From contig JBDRII010000028.1 of NCBI GenBank assembly GCA_043816085.1, forward strand, positions 1 to 27,031: 27,031 bases of DNA, written 5' to 3'. Positions 6,220 through 21,772 of the stretch are shown one piece after another. The position numbers and the translations under genes are program-made. The first letter of the stretch is position 1; each line of letters starts with the position of its first letter. The notes under the pieces are model-generated. The model saw nothing but the letters and a program-made list of their open reading frames with translations, was not told the DNA's origin and searched no databases. This stretch comes from Patescibacteria group bacterium (GTDB taxonomy: Bacteria > Patescibacteriota > Patescibacteriia > UBA9570 > JAHJKD01).

Positions 6220-7878
6220 ATGAAACAATCACATCTTTTTTCTAGCACAATAAAATCTTTACCCAAAGATATAAAGGCACCTAGTCATAAATTACTTTAT
6301 CAAGGCGGATTTATTCGGGAATCTTCTGCTGGACGATATTATTTTTTACCTCTAGGAATGAAAGTGAGAGATAAGATAGTTAAAATAATTGAAGAAGAAA
6401 TGGATAAATCTGGAGCCATGAAAATAATTACCCCTACTCTCCATCCAATGGATTTATGGAAAGAGACCAATAGAGATAATTCAGTTGGATTTGAATTAAT
6501 GAAAGTAATAGACCGCTCTAAAAATGAATTTGCTTTAGGTGGCACTGCTGAGGAAATGATTGTAGATTTAATTCGTAAATTTAATATAAGCTATAAAAAC
6601 TTACCTTTTAATATATACCAATTTTCTCAAAAATTTAGAGATGAATTAAGAGCCAGGGGCGGATTACTTAGAGTAAGAGAATTTTTAATGAAAGATGCAT
6701 ATTCTTTTCATGTTGATGAAGCAGACTTTAAAAACGAATATCAGAAAATGTGGGATACTTATACTACTATTTTTAAACGCCTAGGCCTAGAAACAGTAGT
6801 AGTAGAATCTGATAACGGCTATATAGGAGGGGACTATTGTCATGAATTTATTGTAGAAAGTGATATAGGTGAAAGCAAATTTTTAATTTCTGAAGATAAA
6901 AAATATGCTGCTCATGAGGATATAGCTAAATTTAAAAAAGAAGAAAAAAATCTAGATGAATCAGAAGCAAAAATGAAAGAAGTTGATGCTAAACGAGGAA
7001 ATACAATGGAAGACGGGGTAAAACTACATAATTTGCCCTTATGGCAACAAATTAAAGACGTTCTATTTGTAGATGAAAATAAAAAATTTATTTTAGCTAT
7101 TATTCGTGGAGATTTTGACGTTAATGAAACTAAGCTAAAAAATTTAATAAAAGTTAATTCTCTTCGACATGCTACAGACGAAGAAATAAGAGAACTTGGC
7201 AGTGAACCTGGATTTATTTCTCCGGTTAATATATCAAAAAAAGTTATAGTAGTAGCAGATGACTCGCTACGAACAATTAAAAACGCTTATGGTGGGGCAA
7301 ATAAAAAACATCGTGATTTATTAAATGTTAATATTGACCGTGATTATAAACCAAATATTGAGGGAGATATTGCCGCTCCTAAAAACGAAGCTATTAGTCT
7401 TGAAGGTGAAAATTTAAAAGCTAGTAAAGGCATAGAAGTAGGGAACATTTTTCAGCTTGGATGCCACTATAGTAAAAAAATGAAAGCTACTTTTACTGAT
7501 AAGGATGGTAAAGAAAAATATTTTTACATGGGCTGTTATGGAATTGGAATAGGAAGAACCATGGCAACCATAGTAGAAAAATACAATGATGAAAATGGCA
7601 TTATTTGGCCAGAACAAGTAGCTCCATTTAAATATCACCTCATTAACTTGAACAAAGATAGTACTCAAGCTGATGAACTATATGCCTCTTTACAAAAACA
7701 AGAAATTGAAGTACTATATGACGACCGTGATGAGTCTCCAGGTGTCAAATTTAACGACGCTGACCTTTTAGGAATTCCATATCGATTAGTAATTTCTAAA
7801 AAAACTGGTGACCAAATCGAAATAAAAAAACGAACCGAAGAAAAAACAAAATTAGTTGACTTACAAGATATAAAATAA
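6220..7878 (+). CDS. proS: Proline--tRNA ligase with editing (INS) domain
   Basis: KFRDELRARGGLLRVREFLMKDAYSF, IEVGNIFQLG, MGCYGIGIGR, C-terminal anticodon domain GVKFNDADLLGIP, and an INS region IIRGDFDVNETKL. Confidence 0.97.
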   Translation: MKQSHLFSSTIKSLPKDIKAPSHKLLYQGGFIRESSAGRYYFLPLGMKVRDKIVKIIEEEMDKSGAMKIITPTLHPMDLWKETNRDNSVGFELMKVIDRSKNEFALGGTAEEMIVDLIRKFNISYKNLPFNIYQFSQKFRDELRARGGLLRVREFLMKDAYSFHVDEADFKNEYQKMWDTYTTIFKRLGLETVVVESDNGYIGGDYCHEFIVESDIGESKFLISEDKKYAAHEDIAKFKKEEKNLDESEAKMKEVDAKRGNTMEDGVKLHNLPLWQQIKDVLFVDENKKFILAIIRGDFDVNETKLKNLIKVNSLRHATDEEIRELGSEPGFISPVNISKKVIVVADDSLRTIKNAYGGANKKHRDLLNVNIDRDYKPNIEGDIAAPKNEAISLEGENLKASKGIEVGNIFQLGCHYSKKMKATFTDKDGKEKYFYMGCYGIGIGRTMATIVEKYNDENGIIWPEQVAPFKYHLINLNKDSTQADELYASLQKQEIEVLYDDRDESPGVKFNDADLLGIPYRLVISKKTGDQIEIKKRTEEKTKLVDLQDIK

Positions 7879-8951
7879 TGTTTAAAAACCTTTTGGGAAA
7901 ATTTTCCCGGGACATGGGAATAGATTTAGGAACTGCTAACACTCTTGTTTATGCTAAAGACAAGGGCATTGTTATTAATGAACCCTCAGTTGTTGCTATT
8001 AATGAAAAAACTCAGCAAATTTTAGCAGTTGGAGAAAGTGCTAAAAACATGATTGGAAAAACCCCAGCTCATATTACAGCTACTAAGCCCCTTAGAGACG
8101 GCGTAGTATCAGATTTTGAAGTAGCAGAAAAAATGCTTAAACATTTTATAGACAAAGTAAATAAAGAAAATTTTAGTGCCCTTCCCAAACCCAGAGTTGT
8201 TGTAGCTATTCCCTTGGGTGTTACTGAAGTAGAAAGAAAAGCTGTCGAAGACGCTGCCTTAGCTGCTGGTGCCAGGCAAGTATTTTTAATTGAAGAACCA
8301 ATGGCAGCTGCTATTGGTGCCAGACTTCCTGTTCAAGAATCTACTGGAAATATGATAGTGGATATTGGCGGTGGAACCACGGAAATTGCTATAATTTCTT
8401 TAGGTGGAGTAGTAAATTCCAGATCTTTAAGAATAGCTGGCGACAAATTAAACCAAGATATCATTAACTATGCTAGAGAAAAATTCAATATTTTATTAGG
8501 CGAAAAAACAGCCGAAGAAGTAAAAATCAAAATTGGAACTGCTATTACTCCTAAAGAAGGGGAAGAAATAGAAGCCAAAATAAGAGGACGGGATTTAATA
8601 ACTGGTTTACCAAAAGAAATTATAATAAATTCTTCTCATATCAAAGACGCTCTAAATAAAACCATTTCAAACATTATTGATAATATTAAATCCACTATTG
8701 AAACCACCCCACCAGAACTTGTGGCAGATATTTATGACCGCGGTATTTGTCTTACTGGCGGTGGCGGAAGCTTACTCGGACTTGATGAACGAATAAAAAA
8801 TTATTTAAAAATTCCTGTATATTTAATTGACGATCCTCAGACTGCTGTTGTTCGCGGAACCGGCATTATATTAGATGATCTAGATAATTTAAAGGACATG
8901 CTAATGACCACCGCCGACATGCCCATTATAGTTAACCAATCAAAACCTTAA
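7878..8951 (+). CDS. mreB: Rod shape-determining protein MreB
   Basis: GIDLGTANTL, IEEPMAAAIGA, VDIGGGTTE and LTGGGG. Confidence 0.98.
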   Translation: MFKNLLGKFSRDMGIDLGTANTLVYAKDKGIVINEPSVVAINEKTQQILAVGESAKNMIGKTPAHITATKPLRDGVVSDFEVAEKMLKHFIDKVNKENFSALPKPRVVVAIPLGVTEVERKAVEDAALAAGARQVFLIEEPMAAAIGARLPVQESTGNMIVDIGGGTTEIAIISLGGVVNSRSLRIAGDKLNQDIINYAREKFNILLGEKTAEEVKIKIGTAITPKEGEEIEAKIRGRDLITGLPKEIIINSSHIKDALNKTISNIIDNIKSTIETTPPELVADIYDRGICLTGGGGSLLGLDERIKNYLKIPVYLIDDPQTAVVRGTGIILDDLDNLKDMLMTTADMPIIVNQSKP

Positions 8952-8968
8952 AATTATTTTTAATATTT

Positions 8969-9763
8969 ATGATTAAAGATAATATTGTTAGATTAATTTT
9001 ATTGGGAGTAGTCATTGGGCTGCTCATTTTTTTGCATTATGTGGGTGTGCTTTCACCTGTAGAAAATCTTTTTGCTAGGGGATTTAAATATATCCAAAGC
9101 CCAATATATAGTTTAAGTACTAAAATCTTTAAAACTGAAAATAAAAGCACCATTGCCGAGCTGGAAGAGGAAAATAAAAATCTAACAAATCAAATACAAG
9201 AATTAATTACGGAAAACAGCAAATTAAATCAAAGAAAAGATGATGAACAAAAATATGAAAAACAACTAGAATTTCTAGAAAAAAAGGATTTCATTTCAAT
9301 TGGTGCAAAAATTATTGGAAAATCAAGCGAGGGCCATTCTGGTATTTATTTAATAAACCAGGGGAAAAATCAAAACATTAAAGAAGGGTATCCAGTAATC
9401 ACAGAAAATGGAATATTAGTAGGAAAAGTAACTACTGTAGACAGCGATACCTCAAAAATAATGCTAGTTACTAATAACCTTAGTAAAATTGGTGCCCAAG
9501 TACAAAATCAAGATTCATCCCAAGGTGTAATTTCTGGTCAACATGGATTAACTATAAAAATAGATTTAATTGCCAAAGATGAAAAATTAGAAAAATACGA
9601 TATAGTTATTACTTCCGGCCTAGAAGAAAACATTCCCCATGGATTAATCATCGGACAAATTGAAGAAATTGAAAATGAAGAAAGTGATTTATTCCAATCA
9701 GCAATTATCTCACCCCTTATTGATTACAAACAACAAACAATAGTTTCTGTAATTATCCCATAA
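8969..9763 (+). CDS. mreC: Rod shape-determining protein MreC
   Basis: N-terminal TM helix, coiled coil, INQGKNQNIKEG, GILVGKV and VITSGLEENIPHGLIIG; lies between mreB and mreD. Confidence 0.93.
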   Translation: MIKDNIVRLILLGVVIGLLIFLHYVGVLSPVENLFARGFKYIQSPIYSLSTKIFKTENKSTIAELEEENKNLTNQIQELITENSKLNQRKDDEQKYEKQLEFLEKKDFISIGAKIIGKSSEGHSGIYLINQGKNQNIKEGYPVITENGILVGKVTTVDSDTSKIMLVTNNLSKIGAQVQNQDSSQGVISGQHGLTIKIDLIAKDEKLEKYDIVITSGLEENIPHGLIIGQIEEIENEESDLFQSAIISPLIDYKQQTIVSVIIP

Positions 9764-12286: not shown

Positions 12287-14047
12287 ATGAAAAAAATAAT
12301 CGCTATTCTTTTTATTCTGGGTGTTTTTTGTGCTATTCAAAGCGTTCAAGCATCTGCTACCTTAAACGGACAAGTATATGAAATAAATGGCGATTCAATT
12401 GAAAATATTAATGCTGAAGCTTTTGCTTGTTCTCAAACTAATGATGCTGATAGTGATCAAACTATAGTCTCAACTGTTGATGGATCTTTTAGTCTAACAG
12501 TCGATGGCGACAGTGAATATCAAATATATTTTAGCGACGACCTTAGCAGTGTAAATTCTAAAATTATCTATTTAGAAGATGGAGCCAATATTAATTTGAA
12601 CTTTTTTGCTGAACTTGATGAAACAATGGCCGTAGTAAGGGGTAAAATTGTTGATAATAACGGAGCTCCGCTCAGTAATGAATCTATCACTCTATATTCC
12701 AATGAAGGCGAAGATTCCGCAATAACTTATACTATTAATAGCGATAGCACTGGGAAATTTAATTTTTCCGTACCTCCTGGAAACTATGATCTAGAATCAA
12801 CCCCCCAGGGCGCCTATTGCGGGCCAGGCGTAGGCCAAGAAAATTGTCTGGGCTTTATCGACCAAAATGTAGAATTAGACCCTAATGAAATTTTAGACTT
12901 AGGTACATTAGATTTTACTCCGGCTAATAATCATTTAAACCTATACTTTTTTGCTAAAAATGGAAATGATTCCCCAGAATTATTAACCCTAACTAGAGGA
13001 CAAGTCCAAGCCCATTCCCAATCCGGCCTTTATTCTGGAATCAATAATATTACTGAATATGAAAACAACATTTCTGACATACCATTAACTTCAAATGAAA
13101 ATTGGACAATTAATGCCTCTGGAATCGCTGGAACCAGCTTTTATCATGGGACTATTACCATTTCTGGTGATACCACTTTTACTGATATTGTTTTACAAAA
13201 AAAATACGATCTGGAATCAGCCAGTATTAATAATATTGATGAAACCTTTTTAGCTAATACAGATAAAGAAATTATCTTAAGCGACGGCACAATTATTAAT
13301 ATCCCCGCCTATGCTATTGATAGTGAGGGGGAGGTTAATGTACTAATTGAACCAGCCTTTGATATTTACGGAGCCAAATTGCCAATTAATGGTTTTGTTT
13401 ATAATTTTACTGCTTATAACCACTTAGGTGCCCAAGTAGATGAATTTGACAGGGAAATTCCCATTACAATGTCCTATGACGCAGACGACCTGGAAGACCT
13501 AGGTATAGATGAAAGTAATATTGTTCCTTCATTTTATTCTGAAAGTTATGATCGATGGCTTAATGTCCCTATTTACACTTTAAACACTAATGATAATACA
13601 ATTTCTTTCAGCGTTAATCATTTTTCCCAATATGCCGTAGTAGCTGATATGAATTTAGATATTACTAAAAAATACACCAGGGGTAATAAAAAAGCCCAAC
13701 TTAGGCATGCTCCCAAAAAAGTACGAAAAGTCAAAACAAGAAAAATTGAAATATTATATAATAATTACGTTAAAATTAAAACTAGCTGGAAACGCATTAA
13801 AAATGTAAAAAAATATCAAATCCAATTATTTAAAAAAGACAAAAAAAGAGCGAAAAAATTAAATTCACTTTATCAGGTTAGTAAAAAGAAAATAAAAAAA
13901 TTAAAACGACCTTATAAAATCATTGAAAGAAATTTTAGACCCAATACCCAATATGGCTTAAGAGTAAGAGCCATGAGAAGAGCTGGTAATGAAAATTTTT
14001 ATGGTGCTTGGAGTAAAAAATCATGGCTAACACCTAACAAGCCTTGA
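12287..14047 (+). CDS. Secreted/surface protein: acidic beta-sandwich domains (carboxypeptidase-regulatory-like) plus a very basic C-terminal FN3-like domain
   Basis: Signal peptide ...QSVQA; VRGKIVDNNGAPL...SDSTGKFNFSVPPGNYDL; NHFSQYAVV; K/R-rich tail with FN3-type W..V..Y and RPNTQYGLRVRA...GAWS. Confidence 0.6.
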   Translation: MKKIIAILFILGVFCAIQSVQASATLNGQVYEINGDSIENINAEAFACSQTNDADSDQTIVSTVDGSFSLTVDGDSEYQIYFSDDLSSVNSKIIYLEDGANINLNFFAELDETMAVVRGKIVDNNGAPLSNESITLYSNEGEDSAITYTINSDSTGKFNFSVPPGNYDLESTPQGAYCGPGVGQENCLGFIDQNVELDPNEILDLGTLDFTPANNHLNLYFFAKNGNDSPELLTLTRGQVQAHSQSGLYSGINNITEYENNISDIPLTSNENWTINASGIAGTSFYHGTITISGDTTFTDIVLQKKYDLESASINNIDETFLANTDKEIILSDGTIINIPAYAIDSEGEVNVLIEPAFDIYGAKLPINGFVYNFTAYNHLGAQVDEFDREIPITMSYDADDLEDLGIDESNIVPSFYSESYDRWLNVPIYTLNTNDNTISFSVNHFSQYAVVADMNLDITKKYTRGNKKAQLRHAPKKVRKVKTRKIEILYNNYVKIKTSWKRIKNVKKYQIQLFKKDKKRAKKLNSLYQVSKKKIKKLKRPYKIIERNFRPNTQYGLRVRAMRRAGNENFYGAWSKKSWLTPNKP

Positions 14048-14072
14048 CAAAATAAGAGTCATGCAATAAAAT
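14044..14072 (+). promoter_or_regulatory. sigma70 promoter for greA, overlapping the upstream stop codon
   Basis: TTGACA (14044-14049), 17-bp spacer, TAAAAT (14067-14072); the ATG is at 14081. Confidence 0.75.
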
Positions 14073-14080
14073 ACTACAAT

Positions 14081-14551
14081 ATGAACAATCAAAAACAAAC
14101 CTACATAACTGAAGAAGGTTTAAAAAAACTAGAAGAAGAGCTAGAGTATTTAAAAAATACTAAACGCAAAAAAATTGCCGAAAGAATTAGAGACGCCAAA
14201 GAATTAGGTGATCTTTCAGAGAATGCAGAATATGCTGAAGCCAAAGAAGAGCAAGGTTTTGTAGAAAGCCGAGTTTTAGAATTACAATCTATTACTAGAA
14301 ATGTTAACTTAATTAAAAAAAGCAAAAAAGCTAATCAAATTGATGTTGGTTCTACTATTGAAGTAGAAAACGCTGAAGGTAATAAAATGACTTACACCAT
14401 AGTAGGTTCCAACGAAGCCAATCCACCCAAAGGCCTTATTTCTAATGAATCTCCTATAGGAAAAGCCTTTTTGGGTAAAAAAGTTGGTGAAGAAGCCGAA
14501 GTAGAAGCACCTTCTGGCAAAATTACTTTTAAAGTTTTAAAAATTAGTTAA
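14081..14551 (+). CDS. greA: Transcription elongation factor GreA
   Basis: GDLSENAEY, AKEEQ and ISNESPIGKAFLGKKVGE. Confidence 0.98.
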   Translation: MNNQKQTYITEEGLKKLEEELEYLKNTKRKKIAERIRDAKELGDLSENAEYAEAKEEQGFVESRVLELQSITRNVNLIKKSKKANQIDVGSTIEVENAEGNKMTYTIVGSNEANPPKGLISNESPIGKAFLGKKVGEEAEVEAPSGKITFKVLKIS

Positions 14552-14563
14552 TAAACTTTAAAT

Positions 14564-14591
14564 TTGACAAAATTAATATTCATGATAATAT
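14564..14591 (+). promoter_or_regulatory. sigma70 promoter for the leader-lysWXYZJK-lysS operon
   Basis: TTGACA (14564-14569), 16-bp spacer, extended -10 TG-A-TAATAT (TG 14583-14584; hexamer 14586-14591). Confidence 0.65.
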
Positions 14592-14610
14592 GGCAATAGT
14601 AAGAAAATAT

Positions 14611-14667
14611 ATGAAAATTCAAGCAATCCAACTTAAGAAGAACAAATTTAACTCTTTACTCGGATGA
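14611..14667 (+). CDS. Putative lysine leader peptide MKIQAIQLKKNKFNSLLG (not in the ORF track)
   Basis: 18 codons with Lys at 2, 9, 10 and 12; its 3' half and stop codon overlap the attenuator hairpins. An in-frame ATG at 14590 overlaps the predicted -10 and is probably not transcribed. Confidence 0.7.
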   Translation: MKIQAIQLKKNKFNSLLG

Positions 14668-14723
14668 GTAGCTAAATTTGTTTTATCTTAAAAAAATAGC
14701 CTCTCAACTGAGAGGTGTTTTTT
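14641..14723 (+). promoter_or_regulatory. Transcription attenuator with pause (1:2), antiterminator (2:3) and terminator (3:4) structures
   Basis: 1:2 is AACAAATTTA (14641-50)/TAAATTTGTT (14673-82) plus TACTC/GAGTA. 2:3 is TGAG (14665-68)/CTCA (14703-06), GCTA (14671-74)/TAGC (14697-700) and TTTTA/TAAAA. 3:4 is CCTCTC-AACT-GAGAGG followed by T6. Pairing was done by eye. Confidence 0.72.
14699..14723 (+). terminator. Rho-independent terminator upstream of lysW (attenuator 3:4)
   Basis: GCCTCTC AACT GAGAGGT G TTTTTT. Confidence 0.8.
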
Positions 14724-14754
14724 ATTATATATCTAATTATTTTAAGTAAAAATT

Positions 14755-14928
14755 ATGTCTAATCAAAATTTATGTCCAGAATGCGAGGGTCAAGTCGTAT
14801 TACCATCAGATGCAGAAGTAGGGGAAATCCTAACCTGTTCTGACTGCTCCTCTGAATTAGAGGTCCGCAGTTTAGAACCCTTAATCATTGAATTAGCCCC
14901 AGAAGAAGAGGAAGACTGGGGTGAATAA
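14755..14928 (+). CDS. lysW: Amino-group carrier protein LysW/ArgW, 57 aa (not in the ORF track)
   Basis: Manual translation gives [57 protein letters not shown]: two CxxC zinc pairs, very acidic, and the diagnostic C-terminal EDWGE. Confidence 0.97.
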
Positions 14929-14932
14929 AATT

Positions 14933-15775
14933 ATGAAATTAGGAATCATTTATTCACGGCTTCGAAAAGAAGAAAAATTATTATTTCTAGAAGCCAAAAA
15001 ACAAGGCATTGATCTTATTAAAATTCAAGATAATGATCTAATATTAGATTTGAATAACAACCAACCTAATATGGATGTCATACTAGAAAGAAGTGCCTAT
15101 CATAGTCGAATAATTCCCACTTTATCTATCTTAGAAAATCAAGGCATAAAAACTGTTAATAGTTTAGAATCAACTAATATATGTGATAATAAATTATTAA
15201 CCAGTGTCAGTTTAGCAAAAAATATCATTCCAACTCCTCAAATAAAAATAGCTTTTACCGAAGAAAAAGCTTTAGAGGCAGCCGAAGAATTAGGTTATCC
15301 AGTAGTAATTAAACCAGTAAGCGGTTCCTGGGGAAGATTGCTTGCTAAAATAAATGACCGCGAAGCAGCTGAGGCAATTTTTGAACATAAAAAAGTTTTA
15401 GGCTCATGTGATCATTCTATTTTTTATATTCAAGAATTCATAAATAAAAATCAAAGAGATATTAGATCGTTTGTGGTGGGCAATCAGACCATTGCGGCAA
15501 TTTACAGAGAGTCAGAGCATTGGATAACAAATACAGCCCGGGGCGGCCTAACCTCCAGGTGCCGAGTTACTGATGAAATTAATAATTTATCTCTTCAGGC
15601 AGCCAGAGCCGTTAAAGGAGAAATAGTAGCTATTGATTTATTGGAAACAAAACATGGAACACTGCTAGTAAATGAGATTAACTCAACCATGGAATTTAAA
15701 AATAGCATTGATGTTACTGGAGTAAATATACCAGGTGAAATAATTAATTATTTAAAAAAAACATATGGCAATTAA
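14933..15775 (+). CDS. lysX: Alpha-aminoadipate(/glutamate)--LysW ligase, ATP-grasp RimK family
   Basis: [24 protein letters not shown]...[26 protein letters not shown] 14933 ([11 protein letters not shown]) is preferred to the track's GTG 14921, which lies inside lysW. Confidence 0.95.
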
Positions 15776-16742
15776 TGTTTCAATTGTGGGTGGATCAGGA
15801 TATGCTGGCGGAGAGCTGGTAAGATTATTAATATCTCACCCTGAAGTTAATATCAACCAAATAACATCTGAATCAAATAAAGGAAAATTTATTTCTTTAC
15901 TCCATCCTAATTTGAGAAAAATTTGTAATTTAAAATTCTCTAGTATTAATGATCTTAAAAAATGTGATGTATTATTCCTGACTCTTCCTCATGGAATGAC
16001 AAAAAACCGATTAACAGAGTTTTCTAATTTAGCCGATATTATTATTGATCTAAGCCAAGATTTTAGATTAAGTGATAAATTTGTCTATGGAATAGCTGAA
16101 TTGCATCGAGGCGAGCTAAAAACAGCTAATTTTATAGCTTGTGCCGGCTGTAATGCCACTGCTACTATATTGGGCTTATATCCTTTTTACAAAGAAAAAC
16201 TTATTCGTGAAAACCAAACTACAGTAGAGGCCAAAATTAGTTCTTCAGCATCTGGAAATAAAGCAAATTTAGGCACACACCACCCAGAAAGAAGTGGAGT
16301 AGTGCGTTCCTATATGCCAACAGGACACAGACATATTCAAGAAATAAAACAAGAACTAAATACTAATAACGTACATTTTTCTGCTACTTCCATAGAAATG
16401 GTCAGGGGAATATTAATAACAGCCCAACTATTTCCCCAAAACAAATTATCAGATAAAGATATTTGGAAATTATATAGGAAATATTACAATGACGAACCAT
16501 TCATCAGAATAATCAAAGAAAAAAAAGGAGTTTATAGGTATCCTGAACCAAAACTTCTTCGAGGAACTAATTACTGTGATATTGGTTTTGAAGTAGACGA
16601 AGAATCTGGCCGAATAGTAATTATGTCAGCAATTGATAATTTAGTTAAAGGAGCAGCTGGTCAAGCTGTTCAAGCCTTTAATATTAGATTTAATTTTCCT
16701 GAAATCACTGGTTTGGAATTTAATGGATTACACCCATGCTAA
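15765..16742 (+). CDS. lysY: [LysW]-aminoadipyl-phosphate reductase (ArgC family)
   Basis: [11 protein letters not shown] Rossmann motif, catalytic [33 protein letters not shown] and [14 protein letters not shown]. Confidence 0.93.
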
Positions 16743-17530
16743 TAATTAAAATCGGCGGCGGCCAAACAATTAATATTAATTATATACTTGAAGATTTATC
16801 TAGTCTTCAAGAAAAATTTATTATTATTCATGGAGCAAATTATTTAATGGATGAATTTTGTACCAAACTAAATAAACCTCAAAAAACCCTAGAATCAATT
16901 TCTGGATTTACTTCCAGATACACTGACCCGGAAACTATGGACATTTTTATAATGGTATATGCTGGCCTCGCTAATAAAAGAATCGTGGAAAAATGTCATC
17001 AATACAATATTAATGCTGTTGGACTTTCTGGATTAGACGGAAAACTAGCCACTGGTCAAAGAAAAAAAGCTATTAAAGCAAAAATTAATAAAAAAATCAA
17101 ACTTATTAAAGATGATTTATCTGGAAAAACTGAAACTATTAATATAGAATTACTAAAATTATTATTAAATAATAATTACACTCCTGTAATTTGTCCTCCA
17201 ATTTTAAGTGAGGATAACCAAGCTATAAATACTGACAATGATACTTTAACCTCGATTATTTGCAGAGATATGGATATAAAAACAATTATTAATTTATTTG
17301 AAGCCCCAGGATTATTAAAAAACCCTAATGATCCAAATTCTTTAATTTTAACAATCAATAAAAATAAAATAAATAATTATATGAAATATGGAGAGGGTCG
17401 AATGAAAAAAAAATTATTAGGAGCAGAACAAGCTATTAAAAATAATGTAACTAAAATTATATTAAGTGATGGACGCATTAAAAATCCTGTTTCAAGTGCC
17501 TTAAATGGCCAAGGAACAATTATTCAATAA
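16736..17530 (+). CDS. lysZ: [LysW]-aminoadipate kinase (ArgB family)
   Basis: IIKIGG, IIHGA, SRYTD, GLSGLDG, basic GQRKK loop, NTDND and GRMKKK. Confidence 0.93.
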   Translation: MLIIKIGGGQTININYILEDLSSLQEKFIIIHGANYLMDEFCTKLNKPQKTLESISGFTSRYTDPETMDIFIMVYAGLANKRIVEKCHQYNINAVGLSGLDGKLATGQRKKAIKAKINKKIKLIKDDLSGKTETINIELLKLLLNNNYTPVICPPILSEDNQAINTDNDTLTSIICRDMDIKTIINLFEAPGLLKNPNDPNSLILTINKNKINNYMKYGEGRMKKKLLGAEQAIKNNVTKIILSDGRIKNPVSSALNGQGTIIQ

Positions 17531-17535
17531 AAAAA

Positions 17536-18681
17536 ATGAATATTCAACAAATTGAAGATCAAAATTTAATTCCAATTTATCAAAAAAGGGATATTGTCCT
17601 GGTAAAAGGCAATGGTTGTTATTTATTTGATGAAAATAATAATGAATATTTAGATCTAGCCTCTAATTATGGGGCAAATATTTTAGGTTATAATAATATT
17701 AATTTTAATAATGCACTAAAATCACAAATAGATAGGCTAACAAATTGCCACAGCAGTTTTTATAATGATACTCGTGCGGCCTTACTGTCTAAACTAAATA
17801 ATTTATTTCCAAATTTTAAATCCTTTATATGCAATACTGGAACTGAATCAGTAGAAGCAGCTCTTAAATTTGCTAAAATTATTTCTAACAAAGATGAAAT
17901 TATTAGTGCCAAACGTTCATATCATGGAAGAACCCTGGGCGCTCTATCAGCAACTGGTATTCCAAAATATCAAAAACCATTCCAACCTTTGATTCCCAAT
18001 TTTAAACAAATAAATTTTAATGATATTAATGATCTAATAAAAAATATTAGCCATAATACAGCGGCAATTTTACTTGAGCCAATTCAGGGAGAAAGTGGCG
18101 TAAATATTCCTAATATTAATTATTTAAAACAAGTAAAAAATCTTTGTGTCAAAAATAATATATTATTAATTCTAGATGAAATTCAAACAGGGTTTAGAAC
18201 AGGTAAATATTTGGCCGCTGATCATTTTAATGTTGAGCCTGATATTTTTTGTTTATCTAAAGGTTTAGGAAACGGCTTTCCTGTCGCCCTAACCCTTGTT
18301 CACAATAATGTTTTTAATAATATTGCCAGGGGAAGTCACGGAACTACTTTTGGCAGTAATCCCATGGCCTGTGCCGCCTCTTTAAAAACTCTTGAAGAAA
18401 TTGCGAATAATCAATTATTGCAAAACTCAAAAAATATGGGAGAATATTTTTTAATTAAACTTAATAATATTAATTCTCCAATAGTTAGAGAGGTTAGGGG
18501 GCTGGGATTAATGATAGCCATAGAACTAAAACAAAAAGCTGGAAAATATGTTAAAGCCTTACAAGAAGAGGGGATACTAGTAATGTCTAATAATAATATT
18601 ATAAGATTATTACCTCCTTTGATAATTACTAAAGAAGAAATTGATTTAGCTTTAAAAAAATTTAATAAAATTTTATGTTAG
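17536..18681 (+). CDS. lysJ: [LysW]-aminoadipate semialdehyde transaminase (class III PLP, ArgD family)
   Basis: SYHGRTLGALS, LEPIQGESG, DEIQTG, SKGLGNG (PLP lysine), HGTTFGSNP and RGLGLM. Confidence 0.92.
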   Translation: MNIQQIEDQNLIPIYQKRDIVLVKGNGCYLFDENNNEYLDLASNYGANILGYNNINFNNALKSQIDRLTNCHSSFYNDTRAALLSKLNNLFPNFKSFICNTGTESVEAALKFAKIISNKDEIISAKRSYHGRTLGALSATGIPKYQKPFQPLIPNFKQINFNDINDLIKNISHNTAAILLEPIQGESGVNIPNINYLKQVKNLCVKNNILLILDEIQTGFRTGKYLAADHFNVEPDIFCLSKGLGNGFPVALTLVHNNVFNNIARGSHGTTFGSNPMACAASLKTLEEIANNQLLQNSKNMGEYFLIKLNNINSPIVREVRGLGLMIAIELKQKAGKYVKALQEEGILVMSNNNIIRLLPPLIITKEEIDLALKKFNKILC

Positions 18682-19688
18682 ATAATATTAAATTACTACA
18701 AAAATTAGTAGAAATAGAAAGCCTATCTGGTCAAGAAAAAAAAGCAGCTAATTTTTTAATTAGGCACACTAAAAAATTAAATTTTGACAAAACTTATAAA
18801 GATGACGCTGGAAATTTTGTAGCTGAAAGGGGAGGCGGAAATAATATAATTTTATTAGTTGGGCATGTTGATACTGTTTCCGGAAAAATACCAGTCCGCA
18901 TAAAAAATAATAATCTGTATGGAAGGGGAAGCGTAGATGCTAAGGGATGTTTAGCTACTTTTATCAGTGCTGTAAATAATTTAGTTAATCTAGAAAATAA
19001 CAAATTTATAATAATAGGCGCAGTAGAAGAAGAATGTGAAACATCTAAAGGCGCAAAATTTATTTTAGATAAATATAATCCAAACGCAATATTTATTGGT
19101 GAACCAAGTGGTTGGTCTAATATTACTATTGGTTACAAAGGCAGTCTTAGGCTTGAATATGCAGATGAGTGCCAAAACTTGCATTACGCTAATCCTGATT
19201 CAAATTTAATAAATAAAGCAATTAATTTTATTAATAATTTAAAAAATAATCTTAGTGAAGACGAAATATTAGAAATTAGAAATTTTAATACAACCAACAA
19301 TGGACTAACTCAAAAAGTTAACATAAAAATTAATATCCGAACATCTCCTAATTTTAATATAAATAAAATTGACAATTTATTGAAAAATAAACAAATTACT
19401 ATCAAAGAAAACATTCCTGGAATAATAGCAAATAAAAATAATTTTTTAGTAAAATCCATGTTAAAAAGTATTAGAAAATCCAGTGGTAAACCAAAATTTT
19501 TACGAAAAACCGGTACTTCAGACTTTAATTATTTAGCGAAGAATTGGCCAAATATTCCTATTTTGGCTTATGGTCCAGGTAATTCTAAACTTGATCATGC
19601 CCCGAATGAACATTTAGATCTAAATGAGTATAAAAAAGCCATAAAAGTTTTGACTTTTGCATTAAATAGTGTTAAAATGGGCGCATGA
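18675..19688 (+). CDS. lysK: [LysW]-lysine/ornithine hydrolase (M20 family)
   Basis: GHVDTV, GRGSVDAKG, VEEE, IGEP, GTSD and YGPG...DHAPNEH metal-binding motifs; last gene of the LysW cassette. Confidence 0.92.
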   Translation: MLDNIKLLQKLVEIESLSGQEKKAANFLIRHTKKLNFDKTYKDDAGNFVAERGGGNNIILLVGHVDTVSGKIPVRIKNNNLYGRGSVDAKGCLATFISAVNNLVNLENNKFIIIGAVEEECETSKGAKFILDKYNPNAIFIGEPSGWSNITIGYKGSLRLEYADECQNLHYANPDSNLINKAINFINNLKNNLSEDEILEIRNFNTTNNGLTQKVNIKINIRTSPNFNINKIDNLLKNKQITIKENIPGIIANKNNFLVKSMLKSIRKSSGKPKFLRKTGTSDFNYLAKNWPNIPILAYGPGNSKLDHAPNEHLDLNEYKKAIKVLTFALNSVKMGA

Positions 19689-21772
19689 TAAAATCTGAAC
19701 AAGAAATCCGGAGGGAAAAACTAACAACAATTAAAGATCAGGGGTCAAACCCTTATCCAAGTACTAGTAAAAGAGATGCTTTAATTTTAGATTTTTTAGA
19801 AAATTTTAATAAGCTAAAAAGAAAGAAAAAAGAAGTAACTATTTCTGGGCGAATAATGACATTTAGAGCACATGGCAAATTAGCCTTTGCCAACCTTTTA
19901 GATCGTACTGGAAAATTACAAATTATTTTTTCTCAAAATGAATTAGGCCCGGATAAATATAAATTTCTAAAAAATATTGATATCGGTGACATTATCCAGG
20001 TTACTGGAACTGCTTTTATTACAGAAAAAAAAGAAGAGTCCCTACTTATTACTGACTATAAATTATTATCCAAAGCCCTAGAACCACTTCCAGACAAATG
20101 GCATGGCATTAAAGATGAAGAAACAAGATATAGAAAAAGATATCTAGATATTTTATTAAACCCAGAGCTCCAAGATATGTTTAGAAAAAAGGCTATTTTT
20201 TGGAATAGTATGAGACAATTTTTACTAGACAACAAATTTATTGAAGTAGAAACCCCAGTATTAGAGACTACTCCTGGTGGCGCAGATGCTGAGCCTTTTA
20301 TTACACACCATAACGCCCTAGACATAGACCTATATCTTAGAATTTCTATGGGGGAGCTTTGGCAAAAAAAATTAATGGTAGCCGGATATGAACGGACTTT
20401 TGAAATTGGTCGCCAATTCAGAAATGAAGGAATTGATCCAGAACATTTACAAGATTATACTCAAATGGAATTTTACATGGCCTACACAAATTATGAAGAA
20501 GGTATGAAACTGGTTGAAGAGATGTACAAGTATGTTATAGCTAAAACTTTTGGAAAATTAAAATTTAAAATAAAAGATTTTGATTTAGATTTTAGTCAAA
20601 AATGGGAAAAAATTGATTATGTTTCTGCCATTGAAAAAAAATATCAAATCAACATATTAGACGCTGATGAAAAAAAATTACAAAAAAAATGTCAGGAATT
20701 AAAACTAGATGTTTCAGATAAAGCAGGCAAAGGCAGATTAATGGATACTTTATGGAAACAAGTTAGAAAAACTATTGCTGGGCCAGCATTTTTAGTAAAC
20801 CAGCCTGTTGAAGTTTCACCCCTGGCAAAAAGACAAGAAAAAAATCCAAAATTAGTAGAACGATTTCAAGTAATAACAGCTGGATCAGAAAACGGAAACG
20901 GTTATTCCGAACTTAATGATCCAATTGACCAAGAAAACCGATTTAAAGAACAAGCCGCCCTTCGAGAAGCCGGGGACTCTGAAGCTCAAATGCATGACGA
21001 AGAATTTGTAGAAGCCCTTAAGCATGGTATGCCACCAACTTGCGGATTCGGCGTATCTGAACGTTTATTTTCATTTTTGATGGATAAGCCAATTCGTGAA
21101 TGTGTTCTCTTTCCCTTACTTCGTCCAAAAAATAATCACGAAATCACGAAAAAACCGAATGTCGCGAAAAAAGAAGAAAAAGAAGAAAAAATTGATTTTA
21201 ATATTTCCCGTGAAAAATCTTTAGAACTTTTAAAAGCCCACATGAAAGACGAGGCTAATCTAAATCATAGTTTAGAAAGTGAAGCTGTGATGAGAGGGGT
21301 AGCAGAACACTTGGGTGAAGATGTAAAATATTGGGGAGCATTAGGGTTGCTACACGACGTAGATTGGGAATACGGAGAAGATGAACATTGTGTAAAATGT
21401 TCTGAGATCTTAAAGGACGCTGGATATGATGATTTATTTGTAGAAACAGTTATATCTCATGGATGGGGAGTAGAAGATTGTGGTAAAGGAACATTAAAAG
21501 ATTTTAAACGAGAAACTAAAGTTCAGCATGCTCTAGCAGCTAGTGAAACTATTACAGGTTTAATTTTTGCGTCGGCCTTAGTTCGCCCAGATAAAAAACT
21601 AGAATCTGTAAAAGTAAAGTCAATTAAGAAAAAAATAAAAGACAAATCTTTTGCCGCCAAAGTTAACAGAAACGTAATAAAAGAATGCGAACAAGTTGGA
21701 CTAGAATTAGATGAATTTTTAGCCATAGCATTAAAATCCATGCAGGGCATAGCAAAAGAAATAGGATTATAA
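19685..21772 (+). CDS. lysS: Lysine--tRNA ligase (class II) fused to a C-terminal HD-domain hydrolase
   Basis: OB-fold GRIMTFRAHGK, RYRKRYLD, IGRQFRNEG, GMPPTCGFG..ER and LFPLLRP ending about aa 481. After a linker, aa ~507-695 carry H528, HD 557-558, ETITGLI, ALVRP and KKIKDKSFAAKV. Confidence 0.96.
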   Translation: MIKSEQEIRREKLTTIKDQGSNPYPSTSKRDALILDFLENFNKLKRKKKEVTISGRIMTFRAHGKLAFANLLDRTGKLQIIFSQNELGPDKYKFLKNIDIGDIIQVTGTAFITEKKEESLLITDYKLLSKALEPLPDKWHGIKDEETRYRKRYLDILLNPELQDMFRKKAIFWNSMRQFLLDNKFIEVETPVLETTPGGADAEPFITHHNALDIDLYLRISMGELWQKKLMVAGYERTFEIGRQFRNEGIDPEHLQDYTQMEFYMAYTNYEEGMKLVEEMYKYVIAKTFGKLKFKIKDFDLDFSQKWEKIDYVSAIEKKYQINILDADEKKLQKKCQELKLDVSDKAGKGRLMDTLWKQVRKTIAGPAFLVNQPVEVSPLAKRQEKNPKLVERFQVITAGSENGNGYSELNDPIDQENRFKEQAALREAGDSEAQMHDEEFVEALKHGMPPTCGFGVSERLFSFLMDKPIRECVLFPLLRPKNNHEITKKPNVAKKEEKEEKIDFNISREKSLELLKAHMKDEANLNHSLESEAVMRGVAEHLGEDVKYWGALGLLHDVDWEYGEDEHCVKCSEILKDAGYDDLFVETVISHGWGVEDCGKGTLKDFKRETKVQHALAASETITGLIFASALVRPDKKLESVKVKSIKKKIKDKSFAAKVNRNVIKECEQVGLELDEFLAIALKSMQGIAKEIGL

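Follow-up and report, generated by a model that had tools for sequence, protein, structure and literature searches.

What is a set of six amino-acid biosynthesis genes doing in a bacterium of the Candidate Phyla Radiation (CPR, Patescibacteria), whose members are usually described as incapable of making amino acids? The window analyzed here, a stretch of 27,031 nucleotides (nt), is the largest of the contigs that a groundwater metagenome yielded for a Patescibacteria group bacterium (GCA_043816085.1, contig JBDRII010000028.1), and on its + strand, at 14755-19688, it carries six head-to-tail open reading frames (ORFs) in the order lysW-lysX-lysY-lysZ-lysJ-lysK, every one of them intact. Together they form a cassette of the LysW amino-group-carrier type. 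Our answer, which we favor with modest confidence, is that a LysW cassette circulating among CPR bacteria was inserted between greA and lysS, and that under the control of a leader it would convert imported aminoadipate to lysine.

Six intact genes in a CPR genome

The first-pass annotation of this DNA had proposed six contiguous lysWXYZJK genes at 14755-19688; ORFs lie exactly there, and the NCBIfam and Pfam assignments of their products agree. Profile matches are nearly full-length for all six proteins, with no stop codons within the matched regions, and adjacent genes either overlap by 7-10 nt or are separated by a gap of 5 nt. The first gene, lysW (14755..14928), encodes the amino-group carrier protein, which at 57 amino acids (aa), with the pairs CPEC and CSDC (two CxxC) and the C-terminus EEEDWGE, has the small zinc ribbon and the EDWGE tail with C-terminal Glu of a LysW carrier. 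It scores 53.9 bits against TIGR01206 (cut-off 53.2) and 57.1 bits against PF21344. The following lysX (14921..15775, + strand like all genes of the cassette) encodes the ATP-grasp ligase by which LysW is charged with the substrate and reaches 338.9 bits against TIGR02144 (cut-off 275.6). Its ORF opens with a GTG at 14921, and the ATG at 14933, 5 nt past the lysW stop, is the likelier start. The closest solved structure is LysX of Thermus thermophilus (PDB-code: 3vpd, 268 bits), followed by Thermococcus LysX (215 bits) and Sulfolobus ArgX (155 bits). Residues 135-139 form the motif GSWGR, through which such ligases recognize LysW (PMC10433800).

The product of lysY (15765..16742) is a [LysW]-aminoadipyl-phosphate reductase of the ArgC family (TIGR01850, 352.3 bits, cut-off 233.6) and carries the GCNAT active-site stretch, while lysZ (16736..17530) encodes the [LysW]-aminoadipate kinase (NF010659, 292.2 bits, cut-off 223). 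The class-III aminotransferase encoded by lysJ (17536..18681) scores 415 bits against TIGR00707, the ArgD subfamily (cut-off 410), and 370.5 bits against PF00202, and stays far under the cut-offs of the LysJ equivalog models of NCBIfam. The last gene, lysK (18675..19688), encodes an M20 hydrolase of the kind that releases the product from LysW; it exceeds TIGR01902 (306.6 bits, cut-off 163.1), matches PF01546, and lies just below the cut-off of NF003367, the [LysW]-lysine hydrolase (346.7 bits, cut-off 363). LysW, LysX and LysZ exceed NCBIfam equivalog cut-offs, and LysY, LysJ and LysK can be assigned no further than to a family or subfamily (ArgC, ArgD and DapE/ArgE-type families). With LysZ, LysY, LysJ and LysK encoded side by side, the gene content is that of the LysW lysine pathway. 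LysX would join alpha-aminoadipate to LysW at its C-terminal Glu, LysZ would phosphorylate the bound aminoadipate for reduction by LysY, and after transamination by LysJ the lysine would be freed from LysW by LysK.

The host is, as had been supposed from the window alone, a CPR bacterium; it is Parcubacteria-like and has a genome of about 1 Mb. Its assembly (G000) amounts to 937 kb in 131 contigs, with 32.9% GC, 89.6% completeness and 0.7% contamination, and the genomes sampled as its relatives from the family, order, class and phylum (all 440 in the phylum) measure 0.6-2.1 Mb. The nearest named relatives of the prolyl-tRNA synthetase (ProRS), 54-71% identical, come from metagenome-assembled genomes (MAGs) of Patescibacteria, Parcubacteria, Peregrinibacteria, Moraniibacteriota, WWE3, Dojkabacteria and Berkelbacteria, and those of the lysyl-tRNA synthetase (LysRS), 56-59% identical, from MAGs of Patescibacteria and Paceibacterota.

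The greA-lysS junction and the kin of the cassette

Upstream, the inserted segment is bordered by greA (14081..14551, + strand), which has both the N- and the C-terminal GreA_GreB domain of Pfam, and downstream by lysS (19685..21772, + strand; Pfam tRNA-synt_2 and OB fold), which encodes a LysRS with a C-terminal extension and whose ATG overlaps the lysK stop (ATGA). In two genomes of the same family (G001 and G002) and one of the same order (G005), greA directly adjoins lysS, with a spacer of 70-130 bp that holds the greA terminator and the lysS promoter. GreA and PBP2 of G001 are 81% and 78% identical to those of the host. In the host, a leader and the six genes stand in place of this spacer, and the gene order indicates that the cassette is an insertion at the greA-lysS junction. 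It would have entered once the host lineage had diverged from its relatives in the family, displacing the old spacer together with the greA terminator and the lysS promoter. A promoter-like site with an extended -10 element within the end of lysK (19650..19678, + strand; TTGACT, 17 nt, TG-TAAAAT) ends 7 nt before the lysS ATG and may sustain expression of the essential lysS whenever transcription stops at the leader.

Is the cassette common in the phylum? Of the 32 genomes of the order, 2 (the host and G010) have a LysX above the cut-off; in an even sample of 401 genomes from the phylum there are 6, and the carriers are scattered. In a search of 5.8 billion proteins, the nearest LysX sequences were those of Patescibacteria MAGs, with 64-69% identity; one of them is named LysX of a Patescibacteria group bacterium by NCBI. 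The cassettes of these nearest kin share 68-69% identity with the host in LysX and LysY, 65% in LysJ, 53-54% in LysZ and 60-63% in LysW. Three genomic contexts were seen, namely greA/lysS in the host, rsmB/ribH in G010, and a position after tsaB in the loci L195 and L197 (GCA_022572625.1 and GCA_022562675.1), and among the compared CPR carriers only the host has the cassette between greA and lysS. The gene order of L195/L197 is tsaB, leader, lysW, a citrate-synthase-family gene, lysX, lysY, lysZ and lysJ, and that of a further locus, L198, is a TrmB regulator followed by lysW-X-Y-Z-J-K.

With sparse sampling, a tree of LysX alone grouped the host with G010, whereas a first concatenated tree grouped it with G087, a CPR bacterium of another class, and placed G010 elsewhere; the approximately unbiased (AU) test did not separate the alternatives (p 0.48). 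When closer relatives were added, the concatenated tree of LysX, LysY, LysZ and LysJ united the host with L197 and L198 at 100 in the Shimodaira-Hasegawa-like approximate likelihood ratio test (SH-aLRT), and G010 joined this group, also with 100. The cassette thereby falls in a CPR-dominated clade, with a genomic context that, by gene order, differs from carrier to carrier. Because its nearest kin are other Patescibacteria cassettes, the source was probably another CPR lineage, and transfer from such a lineage into the greA-lysS junction is the most economical reading. The earlier proposal of horizontal acquisition thus agrees with the insertion and with the sparse occurrence of LysX, and has to be amended as to the donor, which likely belonged to the CPR and not to another phylum. 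Nor is the LysW route confined to Thermus/Deinococcus and archaea, to which it had been ascribed: close homologs are present in a dozen bacterial phyla or more, and in other Patescibacteria too.

Could the cassette be an ancestral Patescibacteria trait, passed on vertically, that changed its place in genomes and disappeared from most lineages? Such a history would suit the deep divergence (45-69% identity) inside its own CPR-dominated clade, the scatter of LysX carriers over the phylum and a composition matching that of the host. We nevertheless judge it unlikely, as three close relatives retain an intact greA-lysS spacer with terminator and promoter, several clean independent deletions would be required, the cassette sits in three different contexts, and within the order it is confined to 2 of 32 genomes. 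Far less probable still, to the point of being negligible, is that the cassette is an assembly chimera, a binning contaminant or a decaying relic. The source is indeed a MAG of 131 contigs, and the lysX copy of G010 holds a nonsense codon; against this stand flanks made up of CPR genes in conserved order, six host ORFs that are intact and tightly coupled, and the assemblies of other samples. The stretch from greA into lysS is near-identical in several groundwater and biofilm metagenomes of different studies. Contigs of run X1 cover 13800-17588 (depth 28.6) and 17675-20468 (depth 28.7), and contigs of run X2, from a different study, cover 14366-16700 and 19228-20473 (depth 10.7 each), so that both junctions of the cassette are bridged independently. 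GC is flat across the cassette borders, where no compositional break was found, and the cassette genes lie inside the host range of GC and of GC at third codon positions (GC3), with lysZ, lysJ and lysK in its AT-rich tail. A break in coverage or composition had been named beforehand as the mark of a chimera; with even depth and host-like composition, the contig is not chimeric. Transfer between CPR lineages followed by insertion stays our preferred history.

The lysX copy of G010 (L104:9166-10017) is broken by one TAA codon, in frame, at a position that is Glu in the host (...IQAM, stop, EFGYPVV...), with the other five genes intact, which reflects either decay or a sequencing error. Housekeeping genes make up the flanks: a glycosyltransferase gene, rarA, holB, frr, rseP, proS, mreB, mreC, the PBP2 gene, serS, alr, ddl, ftsQ and a NifU-like gene, besides greA and lysS. 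The C-terminal extension of LysRS, about 200 aa long, is common to G001, G002 and G003 of the same family (open frames of 693-703 aa); this fusion is therefore a family trait unconnected with the cassette. Two ProRS architectures occur in the order: a 552-aa form with an editing domain in the host (gene at 6220-7878), G005, G002 and G030, and a form of about 412 aa that lacks this domain in most other genomes, G010 included. This suggests replacement of ProRS within the order and makes the protein a poor baseline of housekeeping divergence, for which it was discarded. Several public MAGs labeled Gammaproteobacteria, Pseudomonadales or Bdellovibrionota (L084, L085, L161, L163, L083 and L179) have CPR-like housekeeping genes in CPR synteny, with LysRS 56-68% and ProRS 55-63% identical to the host proteins, and are probably mislabeled. 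The identity values of G005 equal those of L084.

Leader, substrate and precursor supply

What does the leader say about the product of the pathway? A promoter-like site with an extended -10 element (14564..14591, + strand; TTGACA, 16 nt, TG-TAATAT; 10/12 consensus match) precedes a leader ORF of 18 codons (14611..14667, + strand), MKIQAIQLKKNKFNSLLG, in which codons 9, 10 and 12 encode Lys (AAG AAG AAC AAA); AAG makes up just 17% of the Lys codons of the host, yet it is used here. The Lys-codon stretch and a segment downstream of it form a predicted stem (14633..14691, + strand); the minimum-energy fold of the leader reaches -31.7 kcal/mol (z -4.7; 0 of 200 shuffles as stable). About 30 nt upstream of lysW lies a terminator-like hairpin with a T-run (14699..14725, + strand), consisting of a 7-bp stem with four G-C pairs and then GTTTTTTATT. 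Equivalent promoter-like sites are found ahead of the leaders of G010 and L195/L197, whose ORFs at the equivalent place read MENVVFTTYKAKAKKTHS and MKIFISLNSYVKENKKSFWSGS, respectively, and the folds there have z-scores of -5.4 (G010) and -4.1 (L195/L197). Promoter, small ORF with a Lys cluster and terminator thus precede lysW in the host, G010 and L195/L197, which is the layout of an attenuator. In L195/L197 the 3' end of the leader ORF is itself the 5' arm of the terminator, and a stalled ribosome would cover this arm directly. An alignment of the leader DNA of the host and G010 showed shared architecture only, without clear homology.

Rfam detected no riboswitch or T-box in the leader at gathering or permissive thresholds; the best match, to the Phe leader model (24 bits, E 0.04), is below threshold. 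We infer that lysine-responsive leader-peptide attenuation is the best reading, with transcription probably governed by the Lys-codon peptide and the terminator upstream of lysW. Such a leader argues for lysine as the product. A Lys-rich leader ORF as a general feature of lysW loci was considered and rejected, small ORFs of this kind occurring upstream of lysW across phyla in 10 of 72 cases compared to 8 of 72 in the reverse-complement control; it is specific to the CPR cassette clade.

Five residues of LysX have been described as a substrate signature: F-I-T-NS in aminoadipate-specific enzymes, I-Y-V-GF in glutamate-specific ArgX and Y-I-T-NA in bifunctional ones (PMC12998189), while the glutamate-specific ArgX of haloarchaea has another signature, ending in Ala-Leu (PMC10433800). 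We mapped these positions by ungapped alignment to 3vpd and a MAFFT survey. Host LysX has Phe-184, Ile-194, Thr-205, Asn-261 and Ser-262, that is F-I-T-NS, the same as the aminoadipate-specific LysX of T. thermophilus. This signature is present in 82 of 101 extracted LysX homologs, including all those located within homocitrate synthase/homoaconitase/homoisocitrate dehydrogenase (HCS/HACN/HICDH) clusters. Second LysX paralogs, which lie beside argG and argH in Thermotogae, Bipolaricaulia and the CPR genomes G087 and G112, have the motifs FAAES, LAAES, IVLQF and IVLPF. The host genome contains no second LysX paralog, and its single LysX has neither the glutamate-type nor the bifunctional signature. 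The score of LysZ above the [LysW]-aminoadipate kinase equivalog cut-off also counts for aminoadipate. Signature and Lys-codon leader together favor lysine rather than ornithine, and we consider aminoadipate as substrate and lysine as product moderately probable.

From where would the aminoadipate come? Searches with the HMGL-like, aconitase and Iso_dh families found no homocitrate synthase, homoaconitase or homoisocitrate dehydrogenase in the 89.6%-complete host genome; its sole genes of these families are leuA, leuC, leuD and leuB, all above leucine equivalog cut-offs. A citrate-synthase-family gene was not found in the genome either, nor were dihydrodipicolinate synthase (DHDPS) and a LysA-type decarboxylase, and LysZ is the only protein with an amino-acid-kinase fold that was found. 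Without DHDPS, a LysA-type decarboxylase and a second amino-acid kinase, the host has neither the diaminopimelate (DAP) nor the acetyl-glutamate pathway (argJ was not searched). What the cassette encodes is therefore the terminal half of a pathway, dependent on a precursor from outside: a module for conversion or salvage, and not a route of de novo lysine synthesis. Lacking both an aminoadipate route and the DAP pathway, the bacterium would depend on imported aminoadipate (or 2-oxoadipate), drawn from a host organism or the surroundings. In the flanks of the G010 cassette, no sign of a precursor transporter or an aminotransferase was seen.

Several observations weigh against lysine formation from imported aminoadipate by an acquired, leader-controlled cassette: no aminoadipate source is encoded and free aminoadipate is uncommon as a nutrient, the genome is just 89.6% complete, no donor was identified and no compositional break seen, the alternative antiterminator fold of the host leader is weak (-7.7 kcal/mol, z -0.9), and Lys-rich small ORFs are not enriched at lysW loci at large. 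Moreover, the signature is a predictor, and wild-type Thermus LysX is reported to load glutamate at about one tenth of the rate or less, and Thermus LysZ and LysY to act on the glutamate forms at about 60% and 15-20%, respectively, of the usual activity (PMC12998189). The cassette might thus mainly or additionally turn glutamate into ornithine in the manner of ArgW, with a LysX that is promiscuous in vivo, and feed argF, argG, argH and carAB for arginine synthesis from glutamate. Glutamate is always at hand, and the host has argG (538 bits, cut-off 334), argH (304 bits, cut-off 279.5), carA, carB and a split argF in an arg/pyr supraoperon. Neither another amino-acid kinase (argB) nor any other ornithine route was found in its genome (argJ not included), so that the gene content is that expected of an ArgW pathway, and argG is missing from G002 and G003 of the same family, which makes argGH and the cassette both extras of the host. 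Favored at first, this role was downgraded to a possible but rather doubtful one after the signature survey, as the one LysX is of the aminoadipate type, genomes that use the carrier for arginine hold a second paralog with a different motif beside the arg genes, and the leader ORFs are rich in Lys codons with zero Arg codons. Four genomes of the order have argG but no LysX, L195/L197 and G010 carry the cassette without linked arg genes, and G010 has no argG at all; argG and the cassette are therefore not tied to each other. Even less probable, though well ahead of the chimera, would be a complete pathway from 2-oxoglutarate whose aminoadipate-forming genes lie in the unassembled tenth or so of the genome. 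The 131 contigs and the completeness of the assembly leave room for it, and the slot between lysW and lysX is filled by an extra citrate-synthase-family gene in L195/L197 and by homocitrate synthase in relatives of the Fibrobacterota-Chlorobiota-Bacteroidota (FCB) group. In the host, however, lysW abuts lysX with no space for a further gene, the family searches, citrate synthase included, return only leuA, leuC, leuD and leuB, and G010, which is 97% complete, also lacks all aminoadipate-forming genes. Conversion of imported aminoadipate to lysine remains the reading that we favor.

Contig C90 was examined as the missing aminoadipate front end and rejected. Its genes, leuC, leuD, leuA (of the long yeast/actinobacterial type), leuB and ilvE, score above leucine equivalog cut-offs and far under those of homocitrate synthase and homoaconitase. 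This cluster (L140:1076-6864) has 41-45% GC and 35-41% GC3, in the 97th-99th percentile of host ORFs, on a contig otherwise host-like in composition, and is probably a more recent acquisition for making leucine from valine or 2-oxoisovalerate. The arg/pyr supraoperon spans contigs C58 and C129 (L153:8114-19759; L154:409-4036) with the order gatB-argG-argH-carA-carB-pyrB-pyrI-pyrC-argF / pyrD-pyrK-pyrE-pyrF. The assembly gap falls inside argF, both fragments of which match one gene of G003 with 83% identity. ArgH is short, its 398 aa covering positions 10-388 of the 455-position profile, and argG and argH are absent in the genomes of the same family.

The additional gene of L195 (5064-6257) and L197 (1228-2421) is a very divergent member of the citrate synthase superfamily, which matches PF00285 and reaches at most 58 bits against any NCBIfam citrate synthase model. 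As the slot in clusters of Ignavibacteria, Calditrichota and Bacteroidota holds homocitrate synthase, its product may be an unrecognized, non-orthologous homocitrate-forming enzyme, the first of the pathway. A full aminoadipate cluster is present in G087 (L124, G087:C63:1-20000; 55% GC), with HCS, large and small HACN subunits, HICDH, lysW, lysJ, lysY and lysZ. It has three LysX paralogs with the motifs FITNS, IVLQF and FMTGL, and an EgtC-like amidohydrolase (8671-9318), and is without LysK.

Meaning and known systems

Could such a cassette reveal on whom its bearer depends? The first-pass annotation had expected an unexpected biosynthetic capacity. The intact cassette bears this out for the second half of the pathway, and the enzymes that form aminoadipate were not found. 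The bacterium is a real yet not unique exception to the rule of amino-acid auxotrophy in CPR: LysW cassettes are already known as widespread in bacteria, and one of the related Patescibacteria proteins already bears the name LysX at NCBI. What distinguishes the locus is a half-pathway with an outside precursor, an insertion that couples the cassette to lysS, and a conserved Lys leader, which would be a rare lysine-responsive attenuator. The host genome suggests that some CPR bacteria keep or trade compact terminal modules instead of whole pathways. A lysine module that lacks an encoded precursor raises the question of whether partners provide finished amino acids or intermediates, and should the input be aminoadipate, hosts or partners might be predicted with the help of the cassette. 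We tentatively suggest, as a possibility and not our leading expectation, that the bacterium takes aminoadipate or 2-oxoadipate from a partner with an aminoadipate pathway and finishes lysine under a CPR-specific Lys attenuator. Together with the modules for valine to leucine (leuCDAB-ilvE) and ornithine or citrulline to arginine (argFGH), this would amount to a "last-steps-only" strategy of CPR symbionts, and the cassette would be a genomic clue to the type of host depended upon. A literature search on LysW or aminoadipate in CPR found nothing relevant; in one paper the name "lysW" is given to an unrelated transporter (PMC5584792).

Compared to the trp, his, phe, thr and leu attenuators, the leader has the same succession of promoter, short ORF with a cluster of regulatory codons and intrinsic terminator before the first gene. 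It differs in having only 3-4 Lys codons, a weak antiterminator and no match to a curated family. In Thermus, a Lys-codon leader peptide regulates the lysine cluster.

The system resembles the LysW pathway of T. thermophilus in its six components, the zinc ribbon with EDWGE, GSWGR and F-I-T-NS, a LysZ that passes the aminoadipate-kinase equivalog and a LysX whose closest solved relative is the Thermus enzyme. Unlike Thermus, the host lacks homocitrate synthase, homoaconitase, homoisocitrate dehydrogenase and a dedicated LysN, and its six genes form a single W-X-Y-Z-J-K operon fused to lysS in a CPR bacterium of about 1 Mb. This gene order is shared with Thermococcales-type clusters and with loci of DPANN and Thermoplasmatota, and argF, argG and argH of the host would be compatible with an ornithine role as in Thermococcus kodakarensis and Sulfolobus. 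Thermococcus, however, has a bifunctional LysX (Y-I-T-NA) and Sulfolobus a separate ArgX (I-Y-V-GF), whereas the host has one LysX with F-I-T-NS, nearer to the Thermus enzyme than to either of these. An Undinarchaeales MAG (L006, DPANN) has lysW-X-Y-Z-J-K with no homocitrate synthase nearby and may be a parallel case of a second half only in other ultra-small symbionts.

Closest of all are the cassettes of the other CPR carriers. L195/L197 differ from the host in the citrate-synthase-family gene between lysW and lysX and in their position after tsaB, G010 in its place between rsmB and ribH and in the nonsense codon of lysX, and L198 in a TrmB-type regulator in place of the leader. All of them form one clade with the host and have a LysX with FITNS, and L195/L197 and G010 also share with it the promoter, the leader ORF with its Lys cluster and the terminator.

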